Part shown: positions 16,777 to 62,717 of the stretch, piece after piece
Numbering within the stretch: the first letter of the stretch is position 1
Layout of the letters: each line of letters begins with the position of its first letter
Source of the DNA: a virus
DNA: 64,000 bases
IMG/VR virus record: IMGVR_UViG_3300043398_000057
Direction: 5' to 3' (one strand)
The notes under the pieces: generated by a model
Database searches by the model: none
What the model was told of the DNA's origin: nothing
What the model saw: only the letters and a program-made list of their open reading frames with translations
Made by a program: the position numbers and the translations under genes

Positions 16777-18423
16777 ATGAGCAAATTGATTGATTCCATT
16801 CTCGATGGCGACTTTGAATCAGTTGTCGAATCAGTTACTGAACTGATGGACTTTAAGACTGATGATGCTGTTCTTGATTTGGCTGAAGGCTATGACAGTA
16901 TCAATGAAGAATTGTCTTTGGGTGCAAATGACCATAAGGTTCTCGCAGCATTTGCCAAGGGCGAAAAGGCCGAATCGAAGAAGCTATCAACCGATGGTAA
17001 AACCCTTCATGGAAATTGGATGGGTGGCGGTTCGATTGCCAAGCATATCGATGGTAAGGTTCATCTGCGCCAGATGACTTCGCGTTCTGAACAAACTGTT
17101 CATCGTGCACTGAAAAAGAAGCACCTCGCTAAGAACGATATTGCCGAATGTGTTGATACTGAATTTGATGAATCGACACAACAAATCGAAGAAGGTCGTC
17201 GTATTGTTTCGACCCATGAATATCGCAACCATTCCGCCAAGGTTTACAAGAATTCTGAAACCGGTGAACATGAAGTCGAGTTTTACAAAGATGGTAAACA
17301 CCTGAAGGATGCAACTTATCACACCGATGATAAGGCTGACGCTCAAGGCACCGCCAAGCATTTCATCTCTAAGGCAACCGTTTCTGAAGATTTTCAACTC
17401 GATGAACTGAGTCAAGAAACATTGAAGTCTTACATCAACAAGAATGTTGAAGATGGTTATGTTGTCGCCCGCCAAAAGGGTGTCGCTAAGGCCGCTTTGA
17501 GAACCCAAGGTTTGTCACATAAGCCCGGTTCGGTCGGTCTGCACAAGATTTACAAGACCGACGAAAAGAAAAAGATTACCGAAGGTGAAGAACAACTTGA
17601 TGAACTGAGCAAGGAAACTCTGTCAAATTACATCAAGGGTGCAAGCGTTGACATGGGTGAGTATATTGGTATGGCCGCTAAACGTCGCAAGAATGCCGAG
17701 AAGGAAACCAGTCAAGTTGGCAAAGATCACAATCATGCTATTGCCAATGCATATTCTAAAAAGGCTGATAGTCGTTTGAACAACATTAAGAAAGCTGCAA
17801 CGAAACTGGCTGAAGAAGCTATCAATGAACTGAGTAAAAATACTCTGGCAAGCTATATCAAGGGAGCAAGCAATTCTGCCGCTGGTTTTGCAGGTATGTC
17901 CGCAATGCGAGATGCTAAGGCCGCTGTCGCTACTAGCGATGCTGCCAAAAAGCGTCACACAGACATTGCCGACGAATATGCTGAGAGGTCATATAAACGT
18001 TTGCAAGGTATCAAAAAGGCTGCTTCGAAGCTGGCTGAAGAAACTGAAGAAATCGGTTATGGCGATTTGATGGAACTGTCGGAAGGCATTTACGTCAAGG
18101 CCGATGAAGCCAGCAAAATGGGCGATGCGGCAAGCGCACCCCGCGAACCCTACATGAATTTTGAGAAAGTTGACGAAAAGGGCAACTACGCTGGTAACAA
18201 TGGCACACATTTCTCTCATGGTATCAGGGTTTTCAAGTTTGCCAATAAGAAGGCTTACGAATACGCCAAGAAACTTGACCGTCCTTTGTCTGAAATGGGT
18301 GAACATGAGTTCCATGCCGTTGTGCACAACCATGAATCCGAACCAAAGTATTTTGTCAATGGTAAGGAAGTTTCGAAACCTTCTGAACATCACGAATATA
18401 TCAAGAATCGTCTGAAAATCTAA
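16777..18423 (+). CDS. Prohead core protein (gp67/gp68 position) with repeated internal modules
   Basis: Between gp20 and gp21; acidic N-terminus; three ELSxxTLxxYI repeats. Confidence 0.7.
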   Translation: MSKLIDSILDGDFESVVESVTELMDFKTDDAVLDLAEGYDSINEELSLGANDHKVLAAFAKGEKAESKKLSTDGKTLHGNWMGGGSIAKHIDGKVHLRQMTSRSEQTVHRALKKKHLAKNDIAECVDTEFDESTQQIEEGRRIVSTHEYRNHSAKVYKNSETGEHEVEFYKDGKHLKDATYHTDDKADAQGTAKHFISKATVSEDFQLDELSQETLKSYINKNVEDGYVVARQKGVAKAALRTQGLSHKPGSVGLHKIYKTDEKKKITEGEEQLDELSKETLSNYIKGASVDMGEYIGMAAKRRKNAEKETSQVGKDHNHAIANAYSKKADSRLNNIKKAATKLAEEAINELSKNTLASYIKGASNSAAGFAGMSAMRDAKAAVATSDAAKKRHTDIADEYAERSYKRLQGIKKAASKLAEETEEIGYGDLMELSEGIYVKADEASKMGDAASAPREPYMNFEKVDEKGNYAGNNGTHFSHGIRVFKFANKKAYEYAKKLDRPLSEMGEHEFHAVVHNHESEPKYFVNGKEVSKPSEHHEYIKNRLKI

Positions 18424-26310: not shown

Positions 26311-26760
26311 ATGCAAGACAATATCAAATATACCGGTGAACTGACAGTGATGATTCATGATGGTATTACGGGTGAGTTGAAATCTACGGAAGTCCATAAA
26401 AACCTTGTTGTGAAGGTTGGTCGAGACTTTGCCGCCCGAAGACTTCATAGCAATGCCGATTCCCCAATGTCTCACATGGCAATTGGTACGAACAACGTTA
26501 CACAAACACCAAGTAATCAAATCTTGGGCGCGGAGATTGCCCGTGTTGCATTTGCTAGTGTGCCGACCACAACGGATTCAACAACAACCTTTGTCGGCAC
26601 TTTTAACGCTGGTGTTGGTACGGGTACGATTACCGAAGCTGGCATTTTTAATGATGCTGGTTCAAATACCGGTGTGATGTTGGCTCGAACCACATTCAAT
26701 GCCAAACCAAAGTTGTCCACTGATATTTTCACTATCATCTGGAACATCACCGCAAACTGA
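26311..26760 (+). CDS. Baseplate/tail-fibre-associated structural protein
   Basis: KNLVV..MSHMAIG..ITEAGIFN..MLARTTF. Confidence 0.75.
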   Translation: MQDNIKYTGELTVMIHDGITGELKSTEVHKNLVVKVGRDFAARRLHSNADSPMSHMAIGTNNVTQTPSNQILGAEIARVAFASVPTTTDSTTTFVGTFNAGVGTGTITEAGIFNDAGSNTGVMLARTTFNAKPKLSTDIFTIIWNITAN

Positions 26761-26772
26761 TAGAGGTTTATT

Positions 26773-28503
26773 TTGGCAATCATCAAACACGGTCTTAGAA
26801 GATCACTGGCTGAAGTTTTCTACAATGAAGTGGTGACGAACCAAACACGGTTCTACTACTTCATTGGTGATACTTTGCAAGCCTCAAGCACAAATGTCAT
26901 ACAAGAACCAGATGATTCATATTCGTATGAACTTTCAACTCGTCGCAATATCATTGCAGCGAAGAAGATTCGTGCATCCGATTTGAGTTTTGTTATCAGA
27001 AAAATCGAATGGGTTTCGGGTGCTGTTTATGACGATTATGACGAATATGCTGATGGCTATTTGTCGGCCACTGGCGCGAATACTTTGCGAGAGTCGAATT
27101 TCTATGTTGTGACTGATGAAAATCAGGTTTACAAGTGTATTTCAAATTCTGGTGGTCAACCATCAACGGTTAAACCTACCGGAATGACTACAACAGTTTT
27201 CAGAACTTCTGACGGTTATAAGTGGAAGTTCATGTATAAGATTCCTCAAACTCTTATCAATCGTTTTGGTAGCACATCATACATCCCCGTAACAAACCCT
27301 GCAACCCGCCTTTCTTTGTCTTCTGGTGGCATTGACCGGGTTATCGTTAGTGCGTTGGGTAGCGGATATATCTCGGCAACGATTACTGTTGAAGGTGATG
27401 GCACTGATGCAGTTTTGACTCCCGTTATCGAGAATGGTCAAATTGTTCGAGTGGTTATCACTGACGCTGGTGTTGGCTACAGCTATGCGAAACTTGTTGT
27501 TTCCGGTATCGGTGAAGATGGTAACCCGATCACAATCGAAAATCAAGCAAAATTGAATGCTGTTTTGGCTGTTGAAGCTGTTGACACTAAGCAAGAATCT
27601 GTTGAACTCAATTCAGTCCCCGGGGCAATCGAAAACATCAAGATTTTGGATGGTGGTACAAACTACAGTGAAGGTACAACGACTTTCAACGTTGTTGGTG
27701 ACGGTACTGGTTTGGTGTTCACACCAGTTTTCAACAACGGTGTTATCACAGAACTCAAAATTGAGAGTGCTGGTCGAAACTATTCATATTTGACCATCAC
27801 CGCACAAGACTAGGTTAACAACGAGTTTGGCGCAGTTTTCCGACCAATTATCAGCCCTCCCGGTGGTCACGGTTCAAATGCTGTTGATGAACTGTTTTCT
27901 TCCGTTGTCGCTGTTAGCACAAAGATTCGGTCAGAACTGAATAACGGGGTCAACGTTACAAACAATTACATTCAAAACGGTATCATTCGTTCTATCCGTG
28001 GGTATAGAACGGGTCGTTTGATCGATAAGGATTACGCTAGTGCATGTTTTGTCGTCTATGGCGCAATTCGTGCGATTGATTTCCCCGTCGATTCAAAACT
28101 TGTTTCGCCCGAAGCCGGAAACACATTCACTGTTGTTGACTCCAAAGATGGTCAACTTTTGATTGCATCTGATTCGACTAGAGGTCTTGAGATTGATCAG
28201 ATTTTGTATTCTGTAAGTAACAACGTTTCTTTCAGTGTAACCGATTTGATTGAGCCGGATTTCGATGTTTTTAGTGGAACCGTTTGTTCGATCAACAATC
28301 AGTCGCCATTCACACATTCTGATAATCAGACTTTGGAACTCGTTACATATTTGGTGTTTGAAGATGTGGCAAGTTTGTCACGCACAAAGATGCCAGAATC
28401 TGAAATTTTGCCGCCTACACCAGTTTCATCGAGTAATGTTGTTTTTGGTGGTAATGATGTTGTTTTGAATGGCAACTCTATCATTTTTAGAATGCCGACT
28501 TGA
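26773..28503 (+). CDS. gp8: Baseplate wedge subunit gp8-like; internal TAG 27811-27813
   Basis: FYVVTDENQVYKCISN, DGYKWKFMY; IISPPGGHGSNAVDEL lies downstream of the TAG. Confidence 0.88.
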
Positions 28504-37771: not shown

Positions 37772-40093
37772 ATGGCGTCACAAAGTTTGTTTGGTAAGGG
37801 TCCAAACCAAATTCCAAGAAATTCTGATCTTGGAAATATCGCGTTTCAAAACTCTGATTTCTTGAGAGTTACAAAACTTTCTTCTGATTTTTCACTGGCT
37901 GTTGGTAAAACTGTCGCGTCACATGCTGTTGATGTTGTTGGTGATGTGAATAGTACGGGCGTTCTAAGAATTAACGGTTCACAAATTCTTTCGAGTACAT
38001 CACTTGCAGAAAGTGTTGTCAATTCTTCTTTGACAAGTGTTGGTAACATCACTACCGGTACATGGTCGGCATCAATTGGTGCGGTTTCTGGTGCAAACCT
38101 CACAAACCTTACCGCTGGCAATCTTACCGGCACGATTACACCATCAGTTCTTGGTAATTCAACATTGTTTGTTGGAACCACACCAATTTCGCTTAACAGG
38201 TCGTCGTCAAATCTGACGCTCGCCGGTATCACATCGATTCAATAGCCCGGTTCTACATCGGGTACTGTAACGTTGGTTCCTAACGCTGTTGCTGGTACAA
38301 CTACACTGACTCTTCCCGCAAATTCTGGAAATATTGCTCGACTTGAAAACAACCTTGGTAGCTTTGCTCAAACAACATCGGCTCAGTTGTCAAACATTAT
38401 CAGTGATAAAACTGGTTCAGGTTTGTTGGTTTTCGCAAATTCTCCATCACTTCAAACCCCATCAGTTTCAACGTCAATCAAATCAAATTCTTCAACTTTT
38501 AGCATTTTTCCGGATACAGTTACATCTTTGTCTATTGGAGGAACTGAAACAACATCACTGAGTATCGCTGATGGTGTAGTCAACTCACAAGTCGTCAGAA
38601 TCTTTTCTGGTGATGTTCCTTCTACAGTTACAAGAAATTTTTTTATTGGTACTGGCGCGGAGTTGGGGTCTACAACCAATGTTACCGTAGGGAGTTCGGC
38701 AAATGGTCTGACAACCTTTTCATTCTCAAATACATTGCTGAAAAATATCTCTAGTGGTAGTTTTACATCAGCAAGTGGCAGTTTTAGTGGCGCGGTTACC
38801 GCTTCTCAATTTGTTTCAACTGTCGAAAACGGTACATCACCATTTGTTGTTAATTCTTCAACAAAAGTCGAAAACTAGAATGTTCATTCAACCGAAACAA
38901 CTTAGCAGTTTTCGATCCCGATACAGATTGATGTATCGGGAGATGTTACTAACACACAGATTCGAACTTTCGATGGTACAGCAAACGTTTCTATTCCAAC
39001 TCAAATTTTGACTGATATCACACCAACAAGTGTTTCTACAACGTCGCAGGGCGCCTTGAGTGGTTTCCGAAACCGTGTTATAAACGGTTGTATGAGAATT
39101 AGTAATAGATCGAATCAATCTTATATTAACACAACAGATGGTTCGATTCGTAAAACATTTTCAGCAATCGATAGATGGTATATGCGTGGTAGTGGTGGTT
39201 CCGGGGATGCTTTTAACGTATCGCAAGGTTTGAATTCTATTGTTTTCAACAATATCGTATATCCAGCCTGCCGACAAACCGTTACATCAGCGGCAAATCC
39301 AACAACTTTGTCAGGTTTTTTCTTTTACAGTGGAATTTCTCAACTTATCGAGTCAAGTAATGTCTATGATATGTTTAACGGTTCATCGAAAACTTCATTG
39401 TCTTTTATTTTTCTCACAAATGTTACGGGGACATACCCAGCGGTTCTAACGACTATCAGTTCAAATGGTAATGAGGCTAATACTTATTCGTTCACCTTTT
39501 CTGCAACTGCAAATACACCAATCAAAGTATCATATCTTATCCCATCTGTCACTCTTACAAATAATTCTCCTACGACTTCTAGCGGTTTGCGGTTATCTAT
39601 AGGCTCTATAGCATCAACGAATTATCAAACACCTTCGGCAAACGGGAGTATTTGGTCTGGTATTACCGGTGAAGCCCCTCCCAATGTTACTAATTGGTAG
39701 ACAACTTCTGGAAACTATATTTCTGTGGCACAAGTTCAATTTGAGCTTGGTCATGCAACATCTTTTGAACACAGACCTATTCAAATCGAACAAATGTTGT
39801 GCCATAGGTATTTTTGGAAAATTCGTAGAACTATTCAAACTCGCGTTTACAATCCAAGTACAGCAAGTCAAACAAATTACATTCATGTACAATTGCCGAC
39901 TCAAATGAGAATTGTTCCTACTGTGACATTTTCAACAAACACACAAACTGCCGGGACTACAGTGGCGTCAACAAATGTTAGTATTGATGGTTTTGAGATT
40001 TCACAAACTTCAACCGCTGTTGGTGACTATAGTGTAAGCATTGCGGGTCCAACTGGAACCAGTGTAAATCTATCCGCTAGCGCAGAACTATAA
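37772..40093 (+). CDS. Tail fibre protein A, 773 aa; internal TAG 38243, 38876, 38903, 39698
   Basis: Four ORF-track fragments share one frame; paralog of the next gene; GFRNRVING..QFELG..FEHRP..CHRYF head module. Confidence 0.85.
38225..38316 (+). repeat. 92-bp perfect direct repeat, copy 1
   Basis: Identical to 40585-40676; includes the in-frame TAG. Confidence 0.9.
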
Positions 40094-40131
40094 GTAAGTA
40101 AATTTATCAACCGTTTGTGTAGGAACCAATA

Positions 40132-42426
40132 ATGGGTACAAAAAGACTGATTGGCATTCTGCCCGATCAAATTCCAAGAAATTCTGATTTGGGGACACTT
40201 GCTTTCCAAAGTTCGGAATATGTCCGTGTTACCAGACTCGCATCAGATTCTTTTGTTGCTGTTGGTAAGGCTATCGCTTCACACCCATTGGATGTTGTTG
40301 GTGATCTAAACAACACTGGTTCATATCGAATCGGTGGAAACGTTATTCTGTCCACAACTACATTGGGTAACAGTGTAGTCAATTCATCGCTTACAAGTGT
40401 TGGAACAATCACAAGTGGTACATGGTCAGGTTTGTTCGGAAACATTTCTGGTGCAAATCTGACGAACCTTACTGCCGGAAACTTGACCGGTACAATTCCT
40501 TCTGTTGTTCTCGGCAATTCCTCACTTTATGTTGGTACAACTCAGGTTGCGTTGAATAGACCTTCAGGCAATCTCGCACTTTCTGGTATCACATCGATTC
40601 AATAGCCCGGTTCTACATCGGGTACTGTAACGTTGGTTCCTAACGCTGTTGCTGGTACAACTACACTGACTCTTCCAACATCGAGTGGCACCATTGCACT
40701 GTTGGCAAACAACCTTGGTAGCTTTGCTCCAACAACATCGGAGGAATTGCTAAGTGTTATCAGTGATGAAAGTGGTTCCGGCCAATTGGTGTTTTCAAAC
40801 TCGCCAACATTGACAACCCCAACAATTTCAACGTCGATCAAATCAAATTCTTCAACGTTCTCTATTGTGCCGGAAACCGTGACAACATTGAATGTCGGTG
40901 GTTCCGATTTGACCGACTTAACTATTGGTGCAAACACAACTACATCTCAAACTGTAAACATTGCAACAGGCGCGACAACAACTGGAAACACCAAGTCAAT
41001 TTTTATTGGTACCGGTGGTCTGAGTGGTTCAACCACTAATGTTACTATTGGTAGTAACACAGGCGCAGGAACTTTGCAAATTAACAGTCCATCAGTATCT
41101 TTCTCTGGCAATATGAATGTTGATGGTAGTGTTACTGGCAACACAGCAACATTTGTTTCGTCCGCAACTTCGAGGACATTTAATTCAACAGTCGCTACTG
41201 GTACTGCGCCATTTGTCGTGAACTCGACAACCCGTGTCGCGAATTTGAATGTTGCTGCTGCTGATGTTGCTGACAGGCTTACAACTCCTAGAACTATCAG
41301 TCTCAGCGGCGCTGTGACGGGCAGCGTGTCATTTAATGGTAGCTCAAATGTTAATATCGTAACATCGGTTACAGGCTCAATTACGCCATCTAGTATTGTT
41401 ACCACACAGCAGGGTGCGCTGAGTGGTTTCAGAAATCGAATTACTAACGGTGACGCAGTTTCATCTATTGTATATCCAACATCCACTATTACCGCTGGCA
41501 ATTCGGGGTTTTCCGGTCCCGCGAGATGGAAAATTGTACTGAACAATATAACCGGGCTGGCAATTACACAAACTTCTATTATCAACACCAACGCTACAAC
41601 AACACCTGTTGGCGGCATTAAACAAGCCGTAAGTTCTGCTGGTCCAGCCTCAATTGGCGCAACTCAATACTACCCTGGTATTCATCAAGTTATTGAGAGT
41701 GTAAACTGTGTTGATCTTTCTCAAAAAACTATTACAGTTTCTTTCTATTTTAGGTCTTCTGTGTCTGGAACATATGCGCTTGCTATTGGACAACATTCGG
41801 ATGCATCAAACGCTAACCCATCGTTTAGTTATGTGACAACTTTTACTATAGCTGTTGGTCAGGGCACTACGTTCCCTACCAGAATTGTTAAAACTATCCC
41901 CGCTGGTGGTATTACTCAAATTGCTTCGGCTAATGGTAATAAGGGAATTTCAATTTACATTGGTGCTATTGCAGGTTCAAATTTTGTTGCTGCTGCTGAT
42001 ACATGGACAAATACTTTTGCTGTTTCTACTGCGAATGCAACAAATTGGGCGGCAACCGCAAGTGCGGTAATTGAAGCATATAACATTCAATTGGAAGAAG
42101 GGCCAGTCGCAACACCATTTGAAAAAAGAACAGTCAGTGCTGAAAACCTACTGGTTAACAGGTATGTAGTTATTACAACTCGTCCCGTGTCATTTCTTGG
42201 ATACAGCCCAAATGCGAATGGTATCGCATACATGAATTATCATTTCCCCACGCCTATGAGAATTGCTCCAACACCAACATCAAATTTTACGGTTAGTGCA
42301 AATACTACGGGGTCATTTCTTGATGTTGGTGTTGATGGTATGACACTATCCGCTGTGAGGACTGATGCGGCAGCATCAATCTCGGCAACATACAACACAG
42401 GCAACATCATTTCAGCGGAGTTCTAA
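40132..42426 (+). CDS. Tail fibre protein B, 764 aa; internal TAG 40603-40605
   Basis: Paralog of fibre A (QIPRNSDLG N-terminus; GFRNRITNG..QLEEG..TPFE; terminal SAEF). Confidence 0.85.
40585..40676 (+). repeat. 92-bp perfect direct repeat, copy 2
   Basis: Identical to 38225-38316. Confidence 0.9.
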
Positions 42427-44606: not shown

Positions 44607-45019
44607 TGAACTATCCAGTTAATCACAATTTGCATCCATTTAACGTTTACAATCAAAACAGGTTTGATATGACATACCTTGACATTTATGTTTCGACTGG
44701 TACAGACTTTGAGTTTACTTTTGATGTGAGCGAATTCATCGAGCCGGAAGACGATTAGCTTGATGGTTCGTGGACAATTGAAACCGTTTACTCTCAAAGC
44801 CGATATTCAAAAGTTAAACAGAATTTCTCGACGGAGATTTTGAATTCAAGAGAAATCAAAATCAGTTTGCAAGATTCGCAGACCGTAAATCTCAAATACA
44901 ATAAATATGTGTATTCGGTTTTTCTTGTAAAAGATTCTGCGAAGCGAACCCTTATTTCTGAAGGCGTGATGCAAGTAAATCAGATTGTGACTCCTAACAG
45001 ACAGAATGGGGGAATTTAA
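44606..45019 (+). CDS. Hypothetical virion protein, 137 aa; internal TAG 44756-44758
   Basis: Fills the gap exactly (TGATG start overlap, TAATG end overlap); absent from the ORF track; KYVYSV..ISEG motif. Confidence 0.8.
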
Positions 45020-45984
45020 TGCCTATCATTTCGACTAGAGAAGAATTCATTGACAATGTGAAACGCCGCCTTGGATGGCCCGTTATCAGTTTGGAACTTG
45101 AAGAAAACCAGATTGACGACCGTGTTGATGAAGCAATCGATTTTTTCTTTGATTTCCACTATGACGGTACTGTTAGAACCTACTTGAAGCACCAACTGAG
45201 TGCAACAGAGGTATCATTCGTGAGTCCTGCTTAGGGAATCATTCCGGGTGAGCGTTTGGAACGCTCAGATGGCTCAGGGTTCACCGTTTTGAGTGTTGCC
45301 AATGGCTCAGGTAGTGTCCTCACAAAAAACTCGTCTGGTGTCCAAATTGGCGAAACGCTGACCGGTAACATGTCCGGTGTCACTGTTGTGATTGACGCTG
45401 TTGATATCGGAGACATTGAAAACCGGTTCATCGACCTTCGTGACATTAACGGTAACCATGTGATTCGAGGCGTTTCAAGAATTGTTCCGATTGAGAGTGC
45501 ATCCGGTACGTCAAATGGTCATGTGTTTGATGCGCGTTATCACGCAACAATTGACGCTTTGTATACCATCAATCATGGCGGAATGCTTGACTACAGCATT
45601 GCAATGTCAAACTTGACTTTGTTGGATCAAGTTTTGCGCCCACGCCAATCAGTTCGGTTCAACAAGGCTCAAGGGTTGCTGTATGTTGATATGGATTGGG
45701 AAAAATACACCCCGGGCGACTAGATCATTGTTGATTGCTTCCGTGTTGTTGATCCTGAAATTTTCAGCGACATTTACAATGATCGAAACTTGCAAAAACT
45801 TGCCGCAGCATACCTGAAAAAGCAATGGGGTACAAACATCAAGAAATATGCAAACGTTTCTCTGATTGCTGGTGTCACGATTGACGGTAACACGATTTAT
45901 CAGGAAGGTGTTGCGGAGTCTGCCGAAGCTGAAACTTCTATCAGGGATAACTATGAAATCCCACCTATCGGATTCTTTGAGTAA
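45019..45984 (+). CDS. gp13: Neck protein gp13; internal TAG 45232 and 45721
   Basis: RRLGWPVI..QIDDRVDEAI..HYDG; KKQWGTNIKKY..GVTIDG; YEIPP. Confidence 0.93.
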
Positions 45985-46778
45985 TGGCAACAATCAACCC
46001 ATTTTTTAACCGTTCGGCCAAACAAGTCGAGGCCGAATATGTTCAGGACATGATTGAAGAATCTATCAAGATTCAGGGTCTTGAGGTTTACTACATTCCT
46101 AGAATCCTGAACAATTTTGACAAGATTTTCGGCGAGTCAACTGACGTTTCTTTCAACGTTGCTATTCCAATGGCAATGTATCCCGAAACTCGTCAATTCA
46201 TCGGTCAAGACACGTTGACACGTTTCGGTTTGCAGTCTTTCCAAACATGTGATTTTTCTGTTGGTAGAAGACACTTCGAAGAACAATATCGAGATAATAT
46301 CCCACCATCGCGTGACCCAAAACTAACTTGGCGACCATGTGAAGGTGACTTGATTTTCATTTCGTCTAATGTTATTCAGGGCAACCCATCAATTTTTGAA
46401 ATCAAGTTTGTTGATGATGATTCACCTGTTTGGCACCAATTGGGTAAGAATTTCACATGGAAACTCAATTGTGAATTGTTCCAATACAGCAAAGAAGAGT
46501 TCTCTACCGGTAACACCGAAATTGACAATGATGTGTTCGGAAAGTACAACACAACAAATGAGAAATACATTTTGTTGGAAATCTCTTCGGATGCCATTCA
46601 AACCAGTTTGGCATATGAGCAATCCGGTACACCGATCAATCTTGAGGCATCAGAAAATTCAGAAACTTCTACTGTTGTGACAACGCCATATGGCGACAAC
46701 ATGGAAATCAAACAAGAATTTTGTGAGAAAATCGTAACTAATGAATGGGATGAATCCGATCCCTTTGGAGGTTTCTAA
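45984..46778 (+). CDS. gp14: Neck protein gp14
   Basis: ESIKIQGLEVYYIPR, RPCEGDLIF, FEIKFV, CELFQYS, ESDPFG. Confidence 0.93.
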   Translation: MATINPFFNRSAKQVEAEYVQDMIEESIKIQGLEVYYIPRILNNFDKIFGESTDVSFNVAIPMAMYPETRQFIGQDTLTRFGLQSFQTCDFSVGRRHFEEQYRDNIPPSRDPKLTWRPCEGDLIFISSNVIQGNPSIFEIKFVDDDSPVWHQLGKNFTWKLNCELFQYSKEEFSTGNTEIDNDVFGKYNTTNEKYILLEISSDAIQTSLAYEQSGTPINLEASENSETSTVVTTPYGDNMEIKQEFCEKIVTNEWDESDPFGGF

Positions 46779-47599
46779 TGATTCCGGGTTTCACTGGTCA
46801 TCAAGTAATTCGTAAAACGGTTGTTGCTTTTGGTAGCTTGTTTTCTCGTTTGTACGTTATCACCAGAAATAAGGATGGTGAAATCATTCAATCGAAGAAG
46901 ATTCCGATCACATATTTGCCAAAGGAAAAGTGGGTTCGTCGTACTGGTGAAAACCCTCTGGTCACAAACGAAATTTTGACAACTCTTCCGCGTGCTTCGT
47001 TCGAGTTGACAAACCTTTCATACAACTCTTCGCGTCAGTTGCCAAAGTTCAACCAAACTTCCATCAATGGCGGTGGAACACAGGGTTCACCAACGCCTTA
47101 CGACTTGTCATTTAACCTTTATGTGACCACCAAGACGCTTGATGAAATGTATCAGGTCATGGAGCAAATTCTTCCATTCTTCAGCCCGGAATAGGTTGTC
47201 AGTGTGAAGGTGGACGGTTCATCTGATGGTGTCATGGATGTTCCAATTATTTTGGAAAGCAATACAACTGAAGACTCGTATGATGGTGATTTTGTTGACC
47301 GTAGAGAAATCATCACGACATTCACGTTTACAGCCAAGGTAAATCTGTATCAGGCAACCAAGGGTATTGATTACGCCAAAATTGCCGGTATTGTTGATGA
47401 ATGCTGTAATGATGGTGAAGTGCTTGGTAGAATCAAGAAAGTCATTATCGACATTCCTCAAGGCAACACAAGGTATACGGCACAAGTTGTGCAGGCTTCA
47501 GCCGAAAAGGAAGACTTGCACAAGGTTATCGAATCCGAAAACGAAATGCCTATCGAAGACCTTATCAAAAACGTGAACATTCATCCTGAGTATTTCTGA
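46778..47599 (+). CDS. gp15: Tail sheath stabiliser/terminator gp15; internal TAG 47192-47194
   Basis: IRKTVVAFGSLF, LPRASFE, EQILPFF, YDGDF..RR. Confidence 0.92.
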
Positions 47600-61346: not shown

Positions 61347-62717
61347 TTACATTGTCCAACCGGAAAAGTCTGTTGTTCCGGTACTTTCACCACCATTGTT
61401 GATAACATCCGACATTTGGGCTTGCGCCTTTTGGGTCTGAGTGTTGTCAACATCATACCACATCATCTTGTCTGTATCGACGCCAATCGCGAAGCAATTG
61501 TAGTAGTCGATTGATCCAAAACGATTCTTCAATTGCTTGATAATACGTTGCTTCATAGCCTTCAGGTCATCTGAAGTGATCATGACGAACATGCTGTCAA
61601 GCGTCATTGGGATACCCCAAGATTCCGAAACATCATTCATTCCCGGGTCAGAGCTTCCGCCACCACCACGGGTTGTTTGCACGGCAGTCCATACAACAGT
61701 GTTTGTCTAAATTGCCATAGACCGCAACTCTTCAGCAACCGATTTTTGTAGCGTGAATGAGTTTGCTTGAGTGTTCTTAACTCTAGCCGAACCAACGATA
61801 CCCATATAGTCAACCACGATCTAATCGGGTACGAAATTCTTAACTCTTTTCAGTTCATCGATCAGGGCTAGAAAATGGTTAGCGTTTGCGCCACCGGTAG
61901 GAAACTCTCTAACGATCAGTTTACCGAAACCCTTGTCTTTCAGACTGTTGATGCGTGAAATAAAATCACTCTTTGTCATACGCATCAATTGATCTTGGTC
62001 AACTTCAAAACGGCATTGGTCGAAACGTTTTGAGATTTCTTCCTGAGCCATTTCAGCGGTAATGTACAAAACATTGTATCCAGCATTCAATGCGCCACGC
62101 GCAATGTTTACCAGACCAAGGGTTTTACCCGCATGGGGCGGCGCCATCAAAGCATTCAGGGTTTTTCTTGTTGGCCCACCACGCATCACCTTATCGAAAA
62201 ATGGATGCCCCGTGGGAATCTTCAAATCCTTCTTGTGGTAATACTCGAAACGGTTTTCAGCATCATCCTCATAATCATGCCCAACTCGCGTGTCGAATTT
62301 AACGCTTAGTGCATCCTGAAGAATTGATGGGATAGCATCAGAAGAACGTTTTTCATCATCACCATTGGCAATGGTGATACTTTCCATGAGTGCATTGAAA
62401 AGTGCATTATCCTTACAGAAAGTCTCAGTTTCATCAATCAGCCAAGAAACCTCATACTCTTTCGAGAAGTCGATTGATTCTAGCTTTTCTGTAATACCAT
62501 CAAGAACACTTTCGGTCTAGTTCTTCGCCTTTGACAACGAGATTTCAACTTGTTCCTTTGTGGGGCAACGCTTGTACTTGTCAAACAGATGAACGATGAT
62601 TTTCAGAAGAACCTTATCAGACTTTTCCTTAAAGTATTCTTCCTTCAGATGTGGAATGACTTGCTTTGCGTAAGCCTCATACTTCATCAAACCGGTAAAA
62701 ATTAGTGTTTCAATCAA
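61347..62717 (-). CDS. gp41: Replicative DNA helicase; internal TAG at 62519, 61823, 61709
   Basis: Three ORF-track fragments in one frame; Walker A APPHAGKT, YITAEM, REFPTG, VDY, SESWG, KQLKNR. Confidence 0.95.

Follow-up and report, generated by a model that had tools for sequence, protein, structure and literature searches.

In-frame TAG is very probably a rare leucine codon in the tandem tail-fibre genes of a T4-like phage

The 64,000-nucleotide stretch of viral DNA analysed here (the window) belongs to IMG/VR virus record IMGVR_UViG_3300043398_000057 and contains two neighbouring tail-fibre genes, fibre A and fibre B, that carry TAG codons in frame. This raises the question of whether these codons are stops and, if not, which amino acid they specify. 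A preliminary description, made from the sequence of the window without database searches, had proposed from a comparison of the two genes that TAG is read as leucine. The window corresponds to bases 52040-116039 of a 144,840-bp record, which has direct terminal repeats and is rated 100% complete. Based on the sequence comparisons described below, fibres A and B are very probably paralogous tail-fibre genes arranged in tandem in an uncultured T4-like phage, whose complete genome is 144.8 kb and in which TAG is a rare sense codon for leucine. The features of the two genes are as follows, with positions in the window.

37772..40093, plus strand: fibre A, a tail-fibre gene of 773 codons; four TAG codons are its only in-frame stops and it ends at TAA
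38243..38245, plus strand: TAG codon 158 of fibre A; same alignment column as the TAG of fibre B; homologs have Leu, Met or Phe
38876..38878, plus strand: TAG codon 369 of fibre A; lies at the almost invariant Leu of the motif APFxVxSTTxVxN-L-NV
38903..38905, plus strand: TAG codon 378 of fibre A; opposite Asp in fibre B and in most homologs
39698..39700, plus strand: TAG codon 643 of fibre A; variable column
40132..42426, plus strand: fibre B, the tandem paralog, of 764 codons with one TAG (codon 158); ends at TAA
40603..40605, plus strand: TAG codon 158 of fibre B; column L43 M28 F24 in homologs
41245..41247, plus strand: Leu 372 of fibre B, written TTG; aligned with TAG 38876

Translation with table 11 fragments the region from 37772 to 42426, and reading through TAG gives two adjacent genes on the plus strand. 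The two predicted proteins are 46% identical over their full length (BLASTP, E 2e-170). Both match phrog_4492 'tail fiber protein' (E 1.4e-13 for fibre A and 6e-21 for fibre B) and the gene upstream of them matches phrog_5939 'tail protein', which places the pair among the tail-fibre genes. The N-terminal part of fibre A, searched as residues 1-430 with X at the TAG codons, has 414 homologs. Fibres A and B have N-terminal shaft motifs in common with phrog_4492 proteins and with proteins bearing Peptidase_S74 and Phage_fiber_2; the motifs GITSI-x-(L/M/F)-PGSTSGTV and APFxVxSTTxVxNLNV are present in both fibres and in hundreds of fibre-like proteins. Unlike in the known fibre proteins, two leucine or other hydrophobic positions of these motifs are spelled TAG in this phage. 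We conclude that TAG interrupts otherwise intact, homologous reading frames.

The leucine proposal had been derived from a single aligned block, in which fibre A reads PFVVNSSTKVEN-TAG-NV (38876) and fibre B reads PFVVNSTTRVAN-TTG-NV (41245-41247). The sequences and coordinates were confirmed, and the block is ungapped. Likewise, the two downstream TAG codons of fibre A, X378 and X643 (X being the residue at a TAG codon), were indeed found opposite Asp (GAC) and Ala (GCG), and their designation as uninformative is fair. A fourth TAG of fibre A, codon 158, which had not been mentioned, faces the TAG at codon 158 of fibre B. As for the claim that the paralogs support leucine without any database, the match is real but is weak when taken alone, since it concerns one of three sites. 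Fibre A has Leu at 25 of the 41 columns where fibre B has Leu, and at 7 of 15 when columns of comparable local conservation are considered. The flank identity at X643 is 5/12, the same as at X369, yet X643 faces Ala. When BLOSUM62 scores are simply summed for the residues Leu, Asp and Ala that face the three TAG codons, Leu comes out no better than Ala, Asp or Ser. By itself, the comparison of the paralogs is a hint at roughly even odds, with a predictive value of about 50-60%, and the match turns decisive only with the family-wide homolog columns.

These columns were obtained for X369 by searching with residues 335-440 of fibre B, which retrieved 175 proteins at E <= 0.01; the analysis covers the 119 of these that were listed, with the fragment of fibre B itself set aside. 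Many proteins with the motif are annotated in Pfam as Peptidase_S74 or other fibre families. Among the matches listed, the residue opposite X369 was Leu in 73 of 73 proteins aligned to fibre A with X at the TAG, and in 96 of 96 with fibre B as the reference. With the position left free, a regular expression matched the motif 206 times in at most 119 proteins, with Leu in 205 cases and Phe in one. The columns near X369 vary, with F/L/M/I at one, R/Q/L/K/N at another and A/S/T/N/D at a third. The homolog P0022, fetched with an X-containing query, likewise has Leu at this position; as its motif was placed wrongly when six fibres were aligned with MAFFT, local alignment and the regular expression were used instead. 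Thus, TAG 38876 occupies a near-invariant Leu of a widespread fibre motif, so that an invariant leucine is written as TAG in an abundant virion protein. The statistical weight of X369 is small on its own, yet it is among the cleanest single positions for an experimental test, because Leu is invariant family-wide at that site.

The column of X158 is hydrophobic as well. Among 101 homologs from the search with fibre A 1-430, selected for at least 8 of 16 identical flanking residues around GITSIQ-X-PGSTSGTV, it contains Leu in 48, Met in 29, Phe in 22, Tyr in one and Gly in one. Gln was not observed in any homolog, here or at any other informative fibre column. The TAG that the two paralogs share at codon 158 lies within a stretch of 92 identical nucleotides:

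38225..38316, plus strand: fibre A copy of the identical stretch; contains the shared TAG
40585..40676, plus strand: fibre B copy; exact match to 38225-38316

The stretch covers the conserved GITSIQ-TAG-PGSTSGTVTLVPNAVAGTTTLTLP motif, is flanked by sequence of about 60-70% identity and has two copies only in the genome. The third codon positions of identical residues match at 100% within the run, as compared to a fraction of about 0.3-0.6 elsewhere. Because it is inside this stretch, the shared TAG counts as one event. The stretch is probably a recent gene-conversion or recombination patch in the most conserved fibre motif, and could act as a module junction for fibre shuffling.

In the C-terminal half, X643 is opposite A, V, S, S and M in the few homologs. 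This half of fibre A has only three database homologs, and X643 therefore remains uninformative. In addition to these three proteins, a match was found in Methylophilales phage Melnitz (W02, MZ577097.1), where positions 102394-103248 show 33% identity to fibre A 429-725; none of the other four fetched relatives has a homolog of the C-terminal domain. A podophage of Pseudomonas has the domain too, in a protein carrying the name 'tail fiber assembly' (P0124). It thus appears that distant phages have exchanged the receptor-binding domain.

The question of the amino acid was extended to the whole genome. Pfam matches identified the T4-type portal, gp23, gp21 protease, scaffold, sheath, gp6, TerL, RNR, UvsW, gp41, UvsX and PolB, and the nearest cultured relatives by major capsid protein (MCP) are Synechococcus phage BUCT-ZZ01 (56%), Methylophilales phage Melnitz (49%) and Pelagibacter phage HTVC008M (49%). 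In a greedy set of open reading frames (ORFs) with TAA and TGA as the only stops, 111 in-frame TAG codons were counted, and the ORFs ended at TGA in 110 cases and at TAA in 82. TAG is rare, representing about 3% of the Leu-plus-TAG codons. Five whole relatives were then compared by tblastn with X at every TAG. The alignments contained 38 TAG sites, of which 37 remained after one spurious ORF was removed, and no in-frame stop was seen in the genuine alignments of the five relatives. Homology continues across in-frame stops of a single kind, TAG, in conserved essential genes, as expected of a recoded phage.

In the closest relative, 14 TAG sites were well aligned (at least 5 of 12 flanking residues identical and no gaps), facing Leu at six sites, Met at three, Phe at two, and Gln, Tyr and Glu at one each. 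True Leu codons face Leu at 51% in the same alignments with the same filter, and the TAG profile is not different from theirs (P=0.36). From conditional distributions measured on the same alignments and with the same filter, the log2-likelihoods for the closest relative were -43.3 for Met, -45.1 for Leu, -57.7 for Phe, -63.8 for Tyr, -72.3 for Gln and -84.1 for Ser, which places Gln, Tyr and Ser 19-39 bits below Leu. With all relatives included and weighted per site, Leu was best (-52.0 versus -55.8 for Met), and in BLOSUM sums Leu ranked first at every threshold. Columns of the mutational neighbours Tyr, Gln, Glu and Lys were found at 3 of the 14 sites against 7.9% expected, a difference that is not significant (P=0.09). 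We conclude that the TAG sites genome-wide have the substitution profile of Leu sites. The preliminary description had named TAG codons lying mainly opposite Gln or other non-Leu codons of orthologs as the outcome that would speak against leucine; this is not what the existing homologs display, and the leucine proposal is supported by the family-wide columns, the genome-wide tally and the transfer RNA described next.

The phage encodes a tRNA with the anticodon CUA. It is one of a cluster of six tRNA genes identified by ARAGORN at genome positions 26514-27889 on the minus strand, outside the window:

genome 26609-26693, minus strand: tRNA(CUA), 85 nt, found by ARAGORN; outside the window

The label 'Pyl' given to it by ARAGORN stems from the anticodon only. 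A second member of the cluster is an 85-nt tRNA-Leu(CAA), to which tRNA(CUA) is identical at 69 of 85 positions without gaps (81%); the D arms differ by a single stem base, and, as judged by inspection of the alignment, differences in the anticodon and variable stems preserve base pairs. The tRNA(CUA) fits the tRNA-Leu consensus cloverleaf, with a long variable arm that includes a variable stem, and has the discriminator A73. It is also 81% identical to a second phage tRNA-Leu, as compared to 61% for a tRNA-Tyr and 51-55% for tRNA-Ser. Among the 40 listed of 79 matches in the phage database, all annotated ones are tRNA-Leu, and a blastn search against E. coli genomes gave no match. On the alignments alone Met and Phe would have remained candidates; the long variable arm excludes both.

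Two other tRNAs with this anticodon were encountered. Phage BUCT-ZZ01 (ON615601.1), the closest cultured relative, has its own 76-nt tRNA(CUA) at 18326-18401 on the minus strand, with a short variable arm, so that it is not of the Leu type; no in-frame TAG was seen in those BUCT-ZZ01 genes that align to this phage. Inactive suppressor tRNAs in some Zeta crAss-like phages offer a parallel (PMC12386605). A metagenome contig (JAAUYK010057417.1) contains at 64-151 on the minus strand an 88-nt Leu-like tRNA with anticodon CUA, A73 and the same D arm as the phage tRNA. The contig is high in GC and bacterial-looking, and its genes resemble purine-biosynthesis and Sua5 genes, by eye only; its tRNA may be a natural cellular Leu-type amber suppressor.

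The tRNA pair suggests how the assignment may have arisen. A tRNA-Leu(CAA) gene would have been duplicated and then altered at one anticodon position, from A35 to U, which on the side of the tRNA corresponds to the change of a TTG codon to TAG. E. coli leucyl-tRNA synthetase (LeuRS) does not read the anticodon, and classical amber suppressors can therefore insert Leu. Since LeuRS ignores the anticodon, a single anticodon mutation in a duplicated tRNA-Leu would suffice, which would add to the routes by which codes are known to change. Neither a release-factor gene nor a class-I synthetase gene was found in the phage genome, and for this reason the tRNA(CUA) would be expected to be charged by the host LeuRS and to compete with host release factor 1 (RF1) at UAG. 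We lean towards the view that this amounts to a natural phage code, TAG for Leu, derived by duplication of tRNA-Leu(CAA) and one anticodon change, with TTG and TAG interchangeable. That the two codons are interchangeable had already been suggested from the paralogs. The single TTG opposite TAG 38876 shows nothing of the kind, since no Leu codon is more frequent than TTG (33% genome-wide, 19/49 in fibre A and 16/48 in fibre B) and in one case out of three a TTG would be expected opposite a TAG. The interchange is nevertheless plausible from the paralogy of the two tRNAs, and better supported by them, because the CAA and CUA anticodons are one base apart and mirror TTG and TAG.

Several observations weigh against the leucine assignment. 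The homologs for X369 were fetched with fibre B, which itself has Leu at this position, although this bias is mitigated because 206 motif instances occur in at most 119 proteins, many of them second copies that retrieval did not require, and because the adjacent columns vary. The column of X378 is Asp in 72 of 83 homologs with fibre B as the reference; fibre A is diverged around this site, having otherwise lost the motif, with 1 of 12 flank identities to fibre B. In the portal, the TAG (X163) faces Tyr, and among 150 representatives the column contains Tyr in 69, Pro in 17, Gln in 13, Phe in 13 and Leu in nine. The gp41 helicase has a TAG at a position that is Glu in all four relatives with a gp41 match and in T4 gp41:

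61707-61709, minus strand: TAG codon 337 of the gp41 helicase gene (61347-62717); 9/12 flanking residues identical to the closest relative

If TAG is Leu, X337 is a Glu-to-Leu replacement at a conserved helicase position, and it is the clearest outlier to this assignment. Furthermore, the alignments cannot tell Met and Leu apart, and in 13 ORFs the last TAG is at most 25 codons before a TAA or TGA stop, in one of them as a direct TAG-TGA. Finally, phage genomes, IMG/VR and metagenome contigs yielded no close relative that shares the tRNA or the fibre TAG. A megablast search of the fibre module against 50,697 phage genomes gave no match, and a search of IMG/VR with fibre A found no related loci; with the portal as the query, the IMG/VR loci were only 34-39% identical. 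Exact and degenerate patterns for the suppressor tRNA, and a degenerate version of the fibre motif that retained the TAG, had no matches in IMG/VR, and in metagenome contigs the tRNA patterns retrieved one unrelated, high-GC bacterial contig.

The position of a TAG close to the stop in these 13 ORFs, together with the lack of a phage release factor or synthetase that could alter host termination, would fit with a leaky stop, where Leu is inserted in only a fraction of the passages in competition with host RF1. The TAG codons would then throttle or time fibre synthesis by the supply of the phage tRNA, and some genes might still end at TAG. We regard this as unlikely, though deserving of attention. 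Essential single-copy genes (portal, terminase, gp41, UvsX, RNR) carry TAG, and with four TAG codons in fibre A a low read-through multiplies to very little full-length protein. The leaky stop moreover concerns efficiency only, as the inserted residue would still be Leu. That the TAG codons are real stops, with fibre A in decay as a pseudogene or made up of several small genes and the match at 38876 due to chance, can practically be dismissed. Table 11 does split the region into ORFs of 157, 201, 230 and 122 codons, and public gene calls carry fibre B as a fragment of 597 amino acids (P0005). This reading is refuted by the continuity of the frame: homology to fibre B and to fibres in the standard code keeps the same frame across every TAG, there is no TAA, TGA or frameshift in 773 (fibre A) or 764 (fibre B) codons, and the same pattern is found in essential genes genome-wide.

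With regard to other amino acids, the literature searched reports a single reassignment of TAG in phages, to glutamine (NCBI table 15), as in crAss-like phages, Lak phages and further recoded phages of the gut. At one site the closest relative has Gln, and the Glu column of gp41 X337 could also be seen in its favour. Glutamine is nonetheless highly improbable here, as it was found in 0 of 101 homologs at X158 and in 0 of 73-96 at X369, is 27 bits below Leu genome-wide, and would have to be delivered by the only tRNA(CUA), whose long variable arm and tRNA-Leu body are never found in tRNA-Gln. A long variable arm and A73 are also features of bacterial tRNA-Tyr, whose anticodon, GUA, differs from CUA by a single base. 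A supF-like tRNA inserting tyrosine could thus be imagined, and three TAG sites face Tyr or Phe in relatives, namely portal X163 and sites in the genes at window 45019-45984 and 46778-47599. Tyrosine is no less improbable than glutamine: the tRNA(CUA) is closer to tRNA-Leu genes (81%) than to a tRNA-Tyr (61%), the annotated database matches are tRNA-Leu only, Tyr is 15-19 bits below Leu in the tally, at most one Tyr was seen at X158, and X369 is an invariant Leu. Serine was also considered and rejected; its log2-likelihood is -84.1 versus -45.1 for Leu, and the tRNA is 51-55% identical to tRNA-Ser.

Leucine at TAG has precedents outside phages. NCBI codes 16 and 22 (chlorophycean and Scenedesmus obliquus mitochondria) also read TAG as Leu, and table 16 renders the site in fibre A as ...KVENLNV. 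These codes are green-algal, organellar and of independent origin, whereas here the code would belong to a phage and its tRNA. In E. coli, amber suppressors of the supP/Su6 type insert leucine by means of a tRNA-Leu with a CUA anticodon that is still charged with Leu, which is the same mechanism as proposed here. The supP/Su6 suppressors are, however, laboratory mutants of host genes with partial suppression, whereas the phage tRNA(CUA) would be a natural, phage-borne extra copy; it has diverged at 16 of 85 positions with the cloverleaf kept, and phage genes depend on it.

Recoded phages with a suppressor tRNA of their own include crAss-like phages, Lak, Garnet, Topaz, Agate, Jade and phAss-1 (10.1101/2021.08.26.457843; PMC10607447; PMC12386605). 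As in these, in-frame TAG codons occur here in essential and structural genes, and the cognate tRNA(CUA) is phage-encoded. Unlike in these, the residue would be Leu, the tRNA is of the type with a long variable arm, genes for RF2 and a synthetase are lacking, and TAG is rare (about 111 codons) rather than abundant. The phage is also a T4-like myovirus; among cultured phages, those nearest to it (MCP 48-56% identical) have Synechococcus, Methylophilales and Pelagibacter as hosts. T4-like phages with cultured relatives that infect aquatic bacteria, as opposed to gut phages, are a lineage new for recoding.

Stop-codon recoding in phages has so far been described as TAG to Gln or TGA to Trp, and a 2026 survey of jumbo phages treats TAG recoding as Gln. 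In the literature searched, largely outside subscription journals, nothing was found that pairs 'reassigned to leucine' with phage. If the leucine assignment is true, it would be a reassignment so far undescribed among bacterial viruses, and it would imply that any synthetase that ignores the anticodon, beyond those for Gln and Trp, can be co-opted for a change of code in phages. Pipelines for TAG recoding translate the codon as Gln (code 15), and a phage with TAG for Leu would be mistranslated at about a hundred positions, including those in its receptor-binding fibres.

The large terminase is present as two ORFs, at window 4296-4676 and 5674-7446. The first of these stops just past the Walker A region (PRQCGK), and a weak Intein_splicing match was found at the N-terminus of the second; in the IMG/VR locus L005, a single uninterrupted stretch (3868-6100) aligns with both. 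In the portal genes of IMG/VR relatives, about 0.7-1.1 kb of extra, in-frame-looking DNA was observed after query residue 312, at the following positions:

L001 3347-4284: extra DNA in the portal gene
L002 4570-5507: extra DNA in the portal gene
L003 3974-5109: extra DNA in the portal gene
L005 10972-11642: extra DNA in the portal gene

The extra DNA in these relatives could be an intein or another insertion, and the portal in the window itself is without it. Just past the end of the window, at genome 117322-120014 on the minus strand, the family B DNA polymerase is represented by two adjacent ORFs, one of 540 amino acids with Pfam matches to the exonuclease and the N-terminal part of the polymerase, and one of 357 amino acids with four TAG codons and no Pfam match. 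The latter could be part of a split polymerase or an unrecognised C-terminal half.

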